Source of the DNA: Prochlorococcus marinus subsp. pastoris str. CCMP1986
Lineage (GTDB): Bacteria > Cyanobacteriota > Cyanobacteriia > PCC-6307 > Cyanobiaceae
DNA length: 32,000 bases
Reading direction: 5' to 3'
NCBI RefSeq assembly: GCF_000011465.1
Contig: NC_005072.1
Coordinates: 1,170,001 to 1,202,000, forward strand
Every line of letters starts with the position of its first letter. Within the stretch, counting starts at the first letter, position 1. This document shows positions 9,001 through 18,000 of this stretch, piece by piece. Made by a program: the position numbers.

Positions 9001-12000
9001 TCCCAAATTAAGAAAAGAAATATCAATATTATTTAAATCAATTCCTAAATTCCAAGCAAAACAAGCCAAAATAAAGCTCAAGAAAAGTCTTTTAAATGGA
9101 GAGAGAGAAAGAACATCATCATAAATGCCTATTAAAAAGAAACATAATGATAAACCAACCAAAACAAAAAGGACTCGATATTCAATAATAAAAAAGCTTG
9201 AAATATACTGAAAAAATATAAACCCAAGTAAACTTAAAAAAAACCCAAGAAATATAGCTAGTCCTCCAATCCTCACAAGTTTTATTTTTTTTACCTTTCT
9301 TGAATTAAGAGAATCAAAAATACCGTATTTACTTCCTATCTTTTTAGAAAAAGGAACAAGTATGAAAGTTAAAAGAAATGCAATTATGAATATTATTAAT
9401 AAGCAAGTAATTTCAATTAACATTTTAATTTTAAAAAATTTAAGTTTAAATTTTATTCAATATTGAGAATAATACAGATTGATCTAAAGATAATAAACTT
9501 TTTAGTAATTTAAAAGAAAATGTATAAATTAATTTTAAAATAAATATATATTAAATTTAAAAAACTCTATTCTTGAAAAAGAATTCATTAGTTTGGTATA
9601 TATAAAATTGAAAATTGATACAAATAAGAATTAAATTTATTTTTTTATATTTACAATACTGATCTATTAATATACCATTATTTGAAATTTAAAAAATATC
9701 TTTTCTAAATGCTCTAAAGGAAAGTACTAAATCATCGCATCGTCTTAAATTTAGATTTTCAATTGATTATTAAAAATGATTTTATTTAAAAATTACTAAC
9801 TATTTAATCTTTATTTATCCTTAAAAATATTTTTACAGATTACTTAAAATAATTTATTCTATTCTTAATCAGATTTAATTTATGGTAATTCCAAAGTTTG
9901 GTTTTCTTGAGAGACCTGATATTGATTTATTGAAGTCTTTTAAAATAAAAAAATATTTATCTGGATGGAAATATTATTTAGGTCGATATAAATATCCAAA
10001 TTTTACAGGTAATTTGATAAATTATGTTATTGGACCAATATTAAAAAATAAATTTGTTTTTTTAAGGTGTGATTGTGATCATTTTGGACCGTGGACATAC
10101 TTATTTCTGTTTACAAAATCTCAACTATTTAAAAAAGATAAAATTTATTTTTGTTTAGCTAGAAAAAATACTATTAATAGGCATTGGATTAATTTATACA
10201 GAAAAAAAAATCTTATTTTAATTTTTAATCCTATATTACATTTTATTTTATCACCCTTATTTTTTGCTCCTATTATTGCATTAGATGTTAACGCTCATAA
10301 CTATATTTCATTTTTTAGAAATAATATCAAATATAAGCATTTCAGAAGAATGAATGAATTGAGTGACGATTTTTTAGCATCAATAAACAATGATAAGTCA
10401 TTACCTAAAAGAAATGAATCAATATTTAATAATAAAATTGTATTACTCTATGCGAGAACAGGAAATTGGAGATTTTCAATAAAAAATTCAACTAGAAATA
10501 TGTCCCTAGAGGCATCGAACGAATTAATTAGAATTATTAGCAAAAGTTATAACGTTTTTTTAGTAGGTGATACACAATTCTCAAATAAATCTAAAAATAA
10601 AAATATTTTTGATGAATCATATCTTTTAAAAAATAATATATCAATATCAGAAATATATAAAAGGGCTTCATTTGTTATTGGGAGTTGTTCAGGGGGTACT
10701 CATTTCCCTTCACTTATTTTTAATATTCCCACTTTATATATAGCTGATATACCTTTATGGCACTTGAAAGCTATTTACAACCTCCCAGCATCTAATTATA
10801 AAAATTTATCAATTCCTAAGAAAGATAAGTGGTTACTTATCTCGAAAGAAAAATTTAATTCACTAACTTCTAATCAATATGAAGATATTTTACAAATATT
10901 TTTCAAGGGGGGGGATATTTCATCTATTAAAGAATTCAATACTTACAGATGTGATAGATCCTTTAATAAAGAGGAACCAGCATTTACTAAGGATAAGAAA
11001 GGAAATATACATATTTCAGAATTCAGTTATAACACTTTGGGTATTTAAGAAAATATTTACAAATAGAATTATTTTTTTTTATTGATAAAAATTGATGATT
11101 ATTGTGCTATAATTCATGAGTTTTAAATGCTTATTTGATAAGCTAATATGCCAATACAAAGTATCAAAAATGATAAGATTCTTGAGAAAATAAATTCTTT
11201 AAAAATTTTAAATAATTTTGAGAATCAAAATTTAGATCATTTTAATCAATTCAAAATAGCATTACATATTAGGGCGATAGAAGAGGCAATTGTATCACTT
11301 GCAAAAGACAATAAACTTAGAGGTCCAATTCATTCTTATGTTGGAGAAGAAGCAATCGCTACAGGTGTTCTCTCTCACGCAAAGCCAATTGATGCAGTTA
11401 CTAGTACACATAGAGGACATGGGCATTACATTGCTAAAGGAGGAAATATTTCTATGCTAATAGATGAATTACATGGGAAGGAGTCTGGTTGTAATGGAGG
11501 TAAAGGTGGTTCTATGCATGTCGCAGATTTATCGATAAATCATTTTGGAGCGAATGGAATCGTGGGTGGAGGAGTACCAATAGCCTGCGGGATCGCACTT
11601 GCAAATAAATTAGATAAAAAGGATTCTATAGTCTTCTGTTTTTTCGGAGATGGGGCTTCTAATCAAGGCGTAGTATTAGAAAGTTTTAACTTAGCCGGAT
11701 TTTTATCTCTTCCTATAGTTTTTATATGTGAAAATAATCAATTTGCACAATCTACAAAACTCTCTGATATTTCTTTAACCTCGGTTGCAAAAAAATCACA
11801 AGGATTTGGCATTAAAAGTATAGAGGTGGATGGCCTAAATATTTCGGAAGTATATAGTAAAACCTCTGATGCCGTTAATTACACAAGAAATGAAATAAAG
11901 CCATATCTAATTCAAGCAAATACTTATAGATTTCATAGACATTTTGTTTCAGAGAAACCTAAACCTATAGATTACTTGGATGAAAATTTTCATAAAGAAT

Positions 12001-15000: not shown

Positions 15001-18000
15001 ATAATCCAATTAGGCAAAATAATTTAACCCCAAATAACTTTATTCCAGTATTATCTCCTTCTATATTATCTAAGATTGATAAACCTTTAGTAATAATAGG
15101 AGCTTGGAGGTTCTCAGAAATAATTATACCTAAGATATTAAATATCAATAATAGAACTGATATAATTATCCCATCTCTTTCCGAGGGAGTGAAGTTTTAT
15201 AAAAATAAATAAATGGTCAAAAGAAAAGTTATATTATTTGGCGCATCTGGACATTTAGGAAATTACTTAAATAAAACACTAATTAATAATAATTTTTCTG
15301 TTAAGACACCTTCAAGAATAGAAGTTAATGAAATACTAAATAATAAATATAAAAAAGAATTTTTTGAAGATTCATTTGTAATCAATACTGTTGCAATTGT
15401 TGGCAAAGAAAATTCTAATTCTTGCTTAATTGATGATTTAAAATTGATAAATGAGGAATTTCCAAAGAAACTCAGTGAAGGAGTAAATTTATATAATAGT
15501 AAACTTATACATATAAGTAGCAATAGTGTTTTTGATAATTCTAAGAAACACTTTAGGCGCGATAAAGATACTCCATCTTCAAAAACAAATTACGGTATCT
15601 CAAAAATAAATGCCGAAATAAATATTAAAGAGACCCTTAATAATAAAAAATATATTATATTAAGAACCCCCCAACATTACTCTAATGATATTGATAATCC
15701 AAGAAATTTATTATGTGGAATATATAAGCAACTAAAAAAATATAAACACATCAAAATTACAAGAAATGAAACTTTTTCAATAGCATCTTGTCAAAGAATT
15801 AGTCTTCTTATAGTTCAATTAATTGAAAAAGATTTTTATGGTTTATATCATGTAAGCGAATTAAAAAATTTCAATTGGTTTGAAATAGCAAGAATTTTAT
15901 CTAAAAAAATGGGATTAAATTGGAGAGAATCAATATCAAATGTATATAATGATAAATTACAAATAAACAACACTTTATACCCCTCCAGTGATACTATTCT
16001 TGAAAGCGATATTATCAAAAAAGATTTTTTACAATTTAATTTATTAAAGTAACCAACTTAAGGGATTCATGAAAGCAGCCATTTTAGTAAATCAAAAAAA
16101 AAAATTAATTGTTGATGAATTAGATTTACCCACTTCTCTGAAAGTTGGCCAGGTATTAGTAAAATTAGAATATAGTGGTATTTGCGGAACTCAAATTGGA
16201 GAAATAGATGGTGTTAAAGGAGAAGATAAATTTTTACCTCACCTTCTGGGCCATGAAGGTTCTGGAATTGTTGAAAAAGTTGGTCCAGGAGTAAAAACTG
16301 TAAGAGAAGGTGACTCAGTTGTTCTTCATTGGAGACAAGGGAATGGGATTCAGTCTGAACCTCCAAAATATAATTGGAATGGAAAAACAGTCAACGCTGG
16401 ATGGGTAACAACGTTTAATACTAAAGCAATAATTAGCGAGAATAGGTGTACTAAGATTCCAGCTAACATATCTAAAGAGGATGCTGCCTTGTTTGGCTGT
16501 GCTGTAACTACTGGTTTTGGTGTGATCGAAAATAATGCAAAACTAAAGATGGGAGAATCAATTGTTGTTTTTGGAGCAGGTGGAATTGGACTGAATATAA
16601 TTCAAGCTGCAAGGCTTACCTCAGCATGGCCAATTATTGCAGTTGATTTATTTGATAATAGGTTAGATCTTGCTAAGAAATTAGGTGCGACTCATTCGGT
16701 TAATTCATCTAACAAAAGTTATCTTGATGAAATAGAAAATATACTTAAGGATAGAGAACTTGATGTTTTTATTGATAATACTGGGAATACTTCAATAATT
16801 GAGATGGGCTATAATTTAATCAGTGATCAAGGTAGATTAATTTTGGTTGGAGTTCCGAAAACTGGAGAAAATATTAATATATTTTCTCTTCCACTGCATT
16901 TTGGAAAAAAAATAACTGGCTCATTTGGAGGAGAATGTAACCCAGCGAAGGATATCCCTAGATTTATTAAAATGATGCAAAATGGTCTATGGGATTTAAA
17001 AGGTTTAATTACTGAAAGTTATGATTTAGAAAATATTAATGAAGCAATATTTTCTATGAGGACAGGAAAAACATCTGGAAGAGTGATTATTAAACTATGA
17101 GTATAGAAACTAAAAAATACAATAATTTAATATCCATTTCAACAGAACTAAGAAAAAGGATAATAAAGACTTCATATGAAGCAAAAATTCCCCATATTGG
17201 TTCTTGCCTTTCATGCATCGAACTCTTAGTTTTCCTTTACTGGAAAGAATTAAATATTGATCCAAGTAATTCTGAAGCTATTAATAGAGATAGATTTATT
17301 CTTAGTAAAGGCCATGGAGCTCCTGCATTATTTCAGGTTCTTGGCTTAAAGGGTTTTTTCCCAATTGAAAGGTTAAATTCATTTGGAAAGCCTGGGAGTG
17401 TTTTCCATGAACATCCACCTAAACCTGGTTATATCCCAGGTATAGAGGCTGCGACTGGTTCTCTAGGTCATGGCTTCCCAATGGCCGTTGGCATGTCATT
17501 AGCTAAAAGAATCAACAATCTACAATACAGAACTTATTCAATTTTGAGTGATGGAGAATGTAATGAGGGTAGTATATGGGAAGCTGCTATGTTCGCAGGT
17601 GCTCAAAAACTAGATGATTTGACAATATTTATTGACTTTAATAAATGGCAAGCGACTGGTAGAAGCAAGGAAGTTTTAGCATTAGATCCTTTAAAGGAAA
17701 AATGGCAGTCATTTGGATGGGATGTTTATGAAATAGACGGTCATAAATTCAATCAGATAGATAAATCTATTGAGCTAGCTAAGACCAATAAAAACAAACC
17801 AAGTGCTATTATTGCTCATACTATTAAAGGCAAAGGGGTATCTTTTATGGAAGACAATAATAATTGGCACTACAAAACACCAAATGAAGAGGAATTCAAA
17901 AAAGCATTTGAGGAATTAAAAAATTAAATCATGAGAGACGCATTTGCAAATGAAATAAAAAGATTAAGCGAAGCAAATAAAAATGTTGTACTACTTTCTG

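Follow-up and report, generated by a model that had tools for sequence, protein, structure and literature searches.

An E2-less E1-type enzyme pair in a Prochlorococcus polysaccharide cluster as a candidate carboligase for nucleotide-activated keto-heptose

Surface glycans of Prochlorococcus, encoded in hypervariable genomic islands, are thought to govern phage adsorption and grazing, and their chemistry is almost unknown. The DNA analyzed here, referred to as the window, is a stretch of 32,000 nucleotides from Prochlorococcus marinus subsp. pastoris str. CCMP1986 (NC_005072.1, positions 1,170,001 to 1,202,000) and constitutes a polysaccharide gene cluster of low GC content (~26%). Five open reading frames (ORFs) on the plus strand, all with clear family matches in Pfam and NCBIfam, occupy window positions 11148-16052. 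They encode the two subunits of an E1-type thiamine diphosphate (ThDP) enzyme, a cupin protein, a C-methyltransferase acting on nucleoside diphosphate (NDP) keto-sugars, and an RmlD-like reductase of the short-chain dehydrogenase/reductase (SDR) class, in agreement with the initial annotation of the locus. The family matches in these tightly packed ORFs are strong and far above chance. The first four genes form a unit that recurs in other genomes and is called the core cassette below.

11148..12122, plus strand: E1 alpha-like ThDP subunit, 324 aa, core cassette gene 1 (PF00676, E1_dh, E 4e-59; motif GDGASNQG...ENN)
12125..13054, plus strand: E1 beta-like subunit, 309 aa, core cassette gene 2 (PF02779, Transket_pyr, E 2.5e-14; PISE Glu and HHS His kept)
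13051..13959, plus strand: bicupin, 302 aa, core cassette gene 3 (N-terminal WbuC-type metal cupin and variable C-terminal beta-sandwich)
13956..15212, plus strand: TylCIII/MtmC/TcaB9-type NDP-keto-sugar C-methyltransferase, 418 aa, core cassette gene 4 (Zn-binding Methyltransf_13, S-adenosylmethionine (SAM) domain and Methyltransf_14, all above Pfam cut-offs)
15213..16052, plus strand: RmlD-like SDR reductase, 279 aa (PF04321, RmlD_sub_bind, E 1.5e-25; GxxGxxG and YxxxK visible)

These genes open a ten-gene run (11148-20461) in which neighbors either overlap by 4 bp or are no more than 17 bp apart. Start and stop codons overlap at the junction of E1 beta with the bicupin, where the two genes share 4 bp, and at that of the bicupin with the C-methyltransferase.

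The ThDP motif of the alpha subunit and the PISE region of the beta subunit, both noted in the initial annotation, are present. The PISE glutamate and the active-site histidines of both subunits are conserved as well, and, judging from these residues, the catalytic machinery of the pair is intact. A residue-level loss of lipoyl chemistry was also sought in the pair and none was found; the catalytic histidines are retained, so this comparison is uninformative. The alpha subunit shares ~45% identity with human PDHA1 across 259 residues. In the beta subunit, Pfam recognizes only the pyrimidine-binding domain, and no Transketolase_C domain is detected. An AlphaFold (AF2) model of this subunit, built from 25 family sequences with a predicted local distance difference test score (pLDDT) of 83.6, matches whole E1 beta structures of pyruvate dehydrogenase (PDH) and branched-chain ketoacid dehydrogenase with template modeling (TM) scores of 0.79-0.81 at ~20% identity. 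Because the model superposes on whole E1 beta subunits, both E1 beta domains are retained. Structures of DXS are also among the structural matches of the model.

Several features separate this pair from the housekeeping PDH enzyme. The alpha subunit scores 250.6 bits against the PDH equivalog TIGR03182 (cut-off 393.85), and the beta subunit scores 86.2 bits against the PDH equivalog NF006667 (cut-off 321). In a set of 5.8 billion proteins, homologs of the beta subunit make up 46 clusters, every one from marine samples, and an exhaustive HMMER pass over 1.84 billion representative proteins returned only 11 matches at E<=1e-30. Because both subunits fall below the equivalog cut-offs and the beta subunit is extremely diverged and rare, the pair is, by its sequence, distinct from housekeeping PDH. 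Identities between the window subunits and conventional E2-linked subunits (E2 being the lipoyl-acyltransferase of dehydrogenase complexes) are 32-36% for alpha and 23-30% for beta, versus 33% and 49%, respectively, between conventional enzymes. The normally better-conserved beta subunit has thus changed most, a pattern that fits the loss of the E2 partnership and the gain of a new acceptor. Alpha subunits of the family carry YR[FY]HRH (YRFHRH in the window) in place of the conventional YRxxGH, placing Arg rather than Gly immediately before the catalytic His, and are devoid of the C-terminal tail of conventional alphas (approximately the last 25 residues, the FAxxSPxP region). In a neighbor-joining tree, the family alphas form one clade. 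Among representative betas, just three low-GC sequences score nearer to the window family than to conventional betas, whereas those of high-GC composition score nearer to the conventional ones. These beta scores suggest an isolated marine clade that arose by independent recruitment rather than by orthology with the actinomycete pairs described below.

The nearest generic alphas, which share 42-47% identity with the window alpha, adjoin an E2 or a stand-alone lipoyl protein (loci L094 and L095), and the distant conventional beta matches L005 and L006 are likewise found beside an E2 or lipoyl protein. In L095 (6001-10286), an unrelated metagenome contig, conventional E1 alpha and beta genes are followed by a free-standing lipoyl protein of 78 aa and then by a split transketolase. 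Such an arrangement stands between that of a full complex and that of an orphan pair.

The initial annotation held that neither E2 nor E3 is encoded with the pair, a statement confirmed within the window and extended beyond it. Flanking DNA was obtained from contig JNAG01000004.1 (GCA_000759875.1) of Prochlorococcus EQPAC1, a cultured HLI strain (PMC4421930), which was matched through exact window proteins; it provides ~10 kb upstream and ~7 kb downstream, the downstream flank being reached via an exact match of the window carbamoyltransferase. Family searches detected no Biotin_lipoyl, 2-oxoacid_dh, or E3-type genes in the window or in either flank. No free lipoyl or carrier protein is encoded in the window or flanks, and the intergenic gaps fit no small carrier ORF.

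The same separation from E2 is seen across related loci. A metagenome scan with an alignment of the beta family yielded 80 loci, which were scored by tblastn with the window proteins and two E2 sequences. Family membership was assigned to 29 loci whose beta is at least 36% identical to that of the window or to a clade-2 reference; these loci have GC contents of 0.24-0.30, include L001, L002, and L004, and derive from 28 independent contigs, as L033 is the same contig as L002. Across their span of 40-93% identity, the order E1 alpha, E1 beta, bicupin, C-methyltransferase is invariant. The bicupin gene directly follows E1 beta in all 26 family loci with downstream sequence, and the C-methyltransferase gene is present in all 19 that extend far enough. 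An E2 is found by tblastn in none of the 29, and E3 is likewise absent from all of them. In contrast, the bicupin and C-methyltransferase are missing from 54 loci with conventional-type betas, and most of the longer of these carry an E2. In clade 1 the RmlD-like gene immediately follows the C-methyltransferase, and in clade 2 it immediately precedes E1 alpha; a few loci lack it. In most long loci, genes for a 223-aa methyltransferase, an SDR resembling the structure 6VO6, and an HldE-like protein lie no more than 10 kb from the cassette, and L032 has thirteen of these cassette and linked genes colinear on a single strand. Besides EQPAC1, the only named genome with the cassette is Prochlorococcus sp. 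AG-363-G03, the sole Genome Taxonomy Database (GTDB) species representative found, although the scan patterns reach only close relatives and say little about taxonomic breadth. The E1 family is rare and confined to islands, and is not a widespread core gene of the genus. The view that a role in a dehydrogenase complex is unlikely, already expressed in the initial annotation, is strengthened by the sub-threshold PDH scores, by this invariant E2-less cassette, and by the placement of conventional relatives beside E2 or lipoyl proteins.

More distant E2-less E1 pairs were also observed. L058 (2484-10959), a low-GC marine cluster of heptose type, encodes a pair whose beta has a recognizable Transketolase_C domain. 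Its neighbors are two SDRs, two DegT-family enzymes, a 222-aa methyltransferase, and an HldE-like gene, without bicupin or C-methyltransferase, and the set resembles a 3-deoxy, yersiniose-like route that would act on heptose. Another such pair, in L013, lies with an HldE-like fragment in a heptose-type cluster.

The partners of the pair in the cassette point to keto-sugar chemistry. The best full-length matches of the C-methyltransferase in the PDB are MtmC (4RV9, 5e-44), TcaB9 (1e-26), and the sugar 3-C-methyltransferase 5T64. Enzymes of the MtmC/TcaB9 type require a keto-sugar substrate. In the bicupin, the N-terminal half (residues 20-141) scores 73 bits against the WbuC family TIGR04366 (cut-off 42), with invariant His and Glu residues. 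Its length of 302 aa includes a second, poorly conserved beta-sandwich, versus the single cupin of ~130 aa expected of the WbuC family. It has only 16 homologs among 5.8 billion proteins and no sequence match in the PDB, and we know of no function assigned to WbuC. The RmlD-like reductase belongs to the broader RmlD_sub_bind fold family but scores 83 bits against the equivalog TIGR01214 (cut-off 224); its best PDB match is RmlD itself (3SC6, 8.5e-13).

The likely identity of the sugar is suggested by genes farther upstream. A segment of the flank located 0.5-6 kb before window position 1 (L010 3250-9016) encodes a GmhB-like phosphatase, a sugar-1-phosphate nucleotidyltransferase, a GmhA-like isomerase, an HldE-like kinase/nucleotidyltransferase, and an SDR. 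This 315-aa SDR has 6VO6/6VO8 as its best solved relative by a wide margin (E 1.5e-39). These entries presumably represent Cj1427, the GDP-heptose C4 dehydrogenase of Campylobacter jejuni, with which the protein length agrees. Cj1427 reoxidizes its bound NADH with 2-oxoglutarate, producing L-2-hydroxyglutarate (PMC10680097). A protein beside the upstream heptose genes passes the NCBIfam cut-off for L-2-hydroxyglutarate oxidase (320 bits versus 299), an adjacency seen in this lineage only, and could recycle the by-product of the Cj1427-like SDR. No 4,6-dehydratase was seen in the cluster. Because the cluster has a complete set of NDP-heptose genes and a Cj1427-like SDR and is without a 4,6-dehydratase, an NDP-4-keto-heptose is, on these homologies, a more likely acceptor than a 4-keto-6-deoxyhexose. 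The HldE-like protein (L010 6498-8000; also in L001, L002, L004, and L058) has its domains in reversed order compared with Escherichia coli HldE, with the cytidylyltransferase-like domain N-terminal (~19-131) and the heptose-7-phosphate kinase domain C-terminal (~178-492).

On balance, it is somewhat probable that the E1 pair is a ThDP carboligase that operates without a lipoyl-E2 and adds a pyruvate-derived two-carbon (C2) unit to a nucleotide-activated keto-heptose. The basis of this reading is gene context together with published precedent. Because the anatomy of the pair and its neighbors match those of the branching pairs of antibiotic pathways, transfer of a C2 unit from pyruvate to a nucleotide-sugar ketone is the best supported of the possible reactions, and the precedent of E1-type pairs making C2 branches on keto-sugars, invoked in the initial annotation, is indeed found in the literature (PMC12247030, PMC4802897, PMC4753412). 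That annotation had placed the branch on an NDP-4-keto-6-deoxyhexose; the C2 branch on an NDP-keto-sugar remains the best explanation, whereas the deoxyhexose gives way to a heptose for the reasons given above.

In the proposed sequence of reactions, the GmhA/HldE/GmhB route and the Cj1427-like C4 dehydrogenase would supply NDP-4-keto-heptose. The pair would decarboxylate pyruvate to hydroxyethyl-ThDP ("active acetaldehyde"), and the resulting carbanion would add to a carbonyl of the NDP-heptose intermediate. The likeliest target would be the C4 ketone of NDP-4-keto-heptose, or the C3 ketone after ketoisomerization, and the product would be a C-acetyl tertiary alcohol. The same ketone would serve the C-methyltransferase in methylating the adjacent carbon, and the WbuC-type bicupin would probably epimerize or isomerize the keto-sugar. 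The RmlD-like reductase would then reduce the remaining ketone, converting the acetyl branch to hydroxyethyl or acting on the ring ketone. The modified heptose would finally be built into a surface polysaccharide of the Wza/EpsG/WecA type.

A number of points weigh against this scheme. Only a short stem separates the family alpha clade from the E2-linked alphas, and the nearest non-family betas look conventional, so a function shared with AviB1/B2 or KbDH would be a case of convergent recruitment. The residues for reductive acetylation of lipoamide are retained, and sequence alone is compatible with a distant E2. Genes for PDH are scattered in cyanobacteria, so a missing neighboring E2 is weak evidence by itself. 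The heptose assignment and the nucleotide carrier (ADP or GDP) rest on homology below equivalog cut-offs. The role of the bicupin in the pathway is a guess; its AF2 model, from a 13-sequence alignment, is poor (pLDDT 52, with the N-terminal domain below 50), and a Foldseek search with it returned only generic bicupins at low TM, from which no function was drawn. Methylation at C3 combined with acetylation at C4 would produce two adjacent quaternary carbons, a sterically unusual and crowded arrangement for which we know of no precedent. Furthermore, true C4 reductase activity of the RmlD-like enzyme would be incompatible with a branch at C4.

The remainder of the operon and its surroundings add further enzymes that bear on the choice among explanations.

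9882..11048, plus strand: candidate glycosyltransferase, 388 aa, directly upstream of E1 alpha (sub-threshold match to TIGR04372, 32 bits versus a cut-off of 45)
16069..17100, plus strand: Zn-dependent alcohol dehydrogenase, 343 aa, within the operon (ADH_N and ADH_zinc_N)
17097-17927 and 17931-18848, plus strand: N-terminal and C-terminal halves of a split-gene transketolase, within the operon (Transketolase_N, E 2e-42; Transket_pyr and Transketolase_C, E 7e-34 and 2.5e-20)
18845..19453, plus strand: haloacid dehalogenase (HAD)-like protein, 202 aa, within the operon (DxDxT motif, DFDNTL, read from the translation)
19454..20461, plus strand: APH/choline-kinase-fold protein, 335 aa, last gene of the operon (weak APH and Choline_kinase matches)
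22421..23092, plus strand: class I SAM methyltransferase, 223 aa (Methyltransf_31, E 6e-22)

All 12 family loci of at least 12 kb contain both halves of the transketolase along with the pair; one 12.3-kb locus gives a weak match only, which overlaps E1 alpha. The alcohol dehydrogenase accompanies the cassette in many loci. The HAD-like protein has no Pfam or NCBIfam match; its gene co-occurs with the cassette in clade-1 loci and some clade-2 loci, and the kinase-fold gene co-occurs with it, the two traveling together in related loci. The position of the glycosyltransferase candidate is unchanged in the closest loci (L014, L015, and L037), and homologs of the 223-aa methyltransferase (41-92% identity) are present in most longer family loci and in L058. 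A promoter and terminator scan of 9300-23700 yielded no signal above shuffled expectation. Elsewhere in the cluster, a triplet of carbamoyltransferase, SxtJ-like, and DUF5989 genes occurs twice, a few kb apart (window 26504-28722, minus strand, and L012 4184-6597), with several class I methyltransferases around it. The triplets and the methyltransferases suggest glycan residues that are O-carbamoylated and methylated. Three other ORFs of the glycan cluster, at 5464-7275 (603 aa), 24486-25478 (330 aa), and 28792-29985 (397 aa), have no Pfam match, and the 330-aa and 397-aa proteins have no NCBIfam match either.

With these genes in view, the chemistry of the pair can be drawn in other ways. Hydroxyethyl-ThDP might be added to an aldehyde in a DXS-like acyloin condensation, extending the chain instead of branching it; for example, a heptose oxidized at C7 by the alcohol dehydrogenase would yield a longer deoxy-ketose. 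An aldehyde-capable Zn-dependent alcohol dehydrogenase is encoded in the same operon, E1- and DXS-type enzymes share a fold, with DXS among the structural matches of the beta subunit, and the E1-type enzyme Ao:DCPIP OR takes both aldehydes and ketones (PMC12247030). Such a route would also remove the conflict of a C4 branch with a C4 reductase. However, the documented sugar reactions of E1-type pairs are all ketone additions at C3 or C4 (PMC12247030), the alcohol dehydrogenase is missing from several cassette-bearing loci within the spans covered (L002, L024, and L038), and the conserved partner C-methyltransferase needs a ring ketone. Chain extension is consequently regarded as improbable. 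Less probable still is a division of labor in which the pair, together with the transketolase, alcohol dehydrogenase, HAD-like, and kinase-like proteins, turns pyruvate into a small non-sugar substituent (of the acetoin or butanediol type, or a ketol phosphate) for attachment to the glycan, while the cupin and C-methyltransferase modify the sugar independently. The presence of kinase-fold and HAD-fold proteins beside two ThDP enzymes and an alcohol dehydrogenase, and the ability of E1-type enzymes to yield acetoin-type products (PMC12247030), speak for this arrangement; yet the pair is linked most strictly to the bicupin and C-methyltransferase, through overlapping codons, and the kinase and HAD genes are absent from many loci and from L058.

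The donor may also differ from pyruvate. A longer or hydroxylated 2-oxo acid, or a ketose, would give a branch larger than C2, as with the ErwE/MygE-type enzymes of erwiniose and related sugars. YerE-like lipopolysaccharide (LPS) enzymes use functionalized keto acids of C4-C8 (PMC9306805), and the adjacent transketolase, alcohol dehydrogenase, and kinase could supply an unusual donor. Set against this, known E1-type pairs appear to be limited to C2 units from pyruvate (PMC12247030), the alpha subunit most resembles E1 alphas of the pyruvate and acetoin types, and no aldolase is encoded in the operon, so that only a slight chance is given to another donor. The poorest prospect is an ordinary pyruvate- or acetoin-type E1 that uses E2 and E3 encoded elsewhere and whose position among glycan genes is incidental, which is considered very unlikely. 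The 42-47% identity of the alpha to E2-linked alphas, the short stem of its clade, the retained active-site histidines, and the dispersal of cyanobacterial PDH genes are all compatible with it. Nevertheless, the equivalog scores lie far under their cut-offs, the synteny with bicupin and C-methyltransferase is invariant across 29 loci with E2 in none, and the beta subunit is extremely diverged within a rare, island-confined family. Phosphonopyruvate decarboxylase was considered separately and rejected, as it belongs to a different ThDP family and no window gene is recognized as a phosphoenolpyruvate (PEP) mutase.

A bolder extension of the carboligase reading, which is unlikely, is that a single NDP-heptose scaffold is worked on by the acetyl-branching E1 pair, the split transketolase (adding hydroxyacetyl), and the C-methyltransferase, producing a multiply C-branched or chain-extended higher-carbon sugar on the cell surface that would diversify phage and grazer recognition. 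If three C-C-forming enzymes do act on one heptose, the sugar would be without known counterpart, and E1-type and transketolase-type sugar branching would for the first time be known from a primary cell-envelope glycan and from outside actinomycetes.

Independently of that extension, the cassette predicts an unusual C-branched heptose, and EQPAC1 is in culture, making glycan analysis possible. A marine clade that is tied to envelope glycans, linked to heptose, and adjacent to a split transketolase would widen the known range of E1-type sugar branching and would add candidates for making tertiary alcohols by biocatalysis. With its strongly diverged beta subunit, the family provides a natural experiment in how an E1 enzyme loses its E2 partnership and gains a sugar-nucleotide acceptor.

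Among known systems, PdhA/PdhB, AcoA/AcoB, and Ao:DCPIP oxidoreductase share the fold, the ThDP motif, and the catalytic residues of the window pair. The pair differs from PDH and acetoin E1 enzymes in that no E2/E3 partner is found with it and in its context of glycan biosynthesis; the AcoC E2 and AcoL E3 encoded alongside acetoin dehydrogenases are absent from every family locus. A functional parallel is provided by YerE/YerF, ErwE, and MygE, which serve the pathways of yersiniose, erwiniose, caryophyllose, and gastriose. As proposed for the window, these systems combine a ThDP carbanion with the C4 ketone of an NDP-sugar, followed by reduction, in the making of a cell-envelope glycan (PMC9306805, PMC4753412). 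However, YerE is a single-chain member of the decarboxylase/acetolactate synthase superfamily, is described as a flavoprotein, and accepts CDP-3,6-dideoxy-4-keto-glucose, whereas the window encodes an E1 alpha/beta pair with E1_dh and Transket_pyr domains and only a weak partial match to TPP_enzyme_C. The capsule heptose pathway of C. jejuni (Cj1427 C4 dehydrogenase, Cj1430 cupin epimerase, and Cj1428 C4 reductase) follows the same logic as the window, from NDP-heptose through 4-keto-heptose and a cupin to an SDR reductase (PMC10680097). The C. jejuni pathways described there include neither a ThDP enzyme nor a C-methyltransferase, and the window differs in its WbuC-type bicupin, its RmlD-like reductase, and its HldE-type (PfkB) kinase.

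In the proposed reading, the pair would work like the E1-type pairs of antibiotic pathways. Termed alphaKADH2 and lacking E2, these pairs are proposed to introduce C2 (acetyl) branches at C3 or C4 of NDP-keto-sugars in avilamycin, paulomycin, everninomicin, aldgamycins, kosinostatin, and kibdelomycin (PMC12247030, PMC4802897, PMC4753412, PMC10338323). Genetic evidence comes from the avilamycin and paulomycin pathways (PMC4802897; PMC4753412), feeding evidence also exists for E1-type pairs, and KbDH has been shown to couple pyruvate in vitro to ketone analogs of sugars (PMC12247030). The pairs (AviB1/AviB2, Pau11/12, equivalent to Plm8/9, EvdU5/EvdS3, the aldgamycin pair, and KbDH-alpha/beta) were likened to the window pair by their descriptions. 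Like it, they are two-subunit E1 ThDP enzymes without E2/E3, located inside an NDP-keto-sugar pathway with a ketoreductase and methyltransferases. In contrast to their actinomycete hosts and antibiotic products, the window pair belongs to a cyanobacterium and other low-GC marine bacteria and to a predicted cell-surface polysaccharide. The acceptors of alphaKADH2 pairs are 2,6- or 3,6-deoxyhexoses or pentoses, whereas that of the window pair is likely a heptose. The window pair is also unlike them in its fixed four-gene cassette with a WbuC-type bicupin and C-methyltransferase and in its very divergent beta subunit. A comparable proposal concerns split transketolases preceded by an oxidoreductase, which in miharamycin and amipurimycin would attach a hydroxyacetyl branch to keto-sugars (PMC12247030). 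All 13 candidate ketone-accepting transketolases are from Streptomycetes (PMC12247030). By analogy, the alcohol dehydrogenase and split transketolase at 16069-18848 would give the operon a second C2-branching system. A 2025 review places E1-type and split-transketolase branching mainly in specialized natural products and assigns LPS branching to YerE-like enzymes (PMC12247030).

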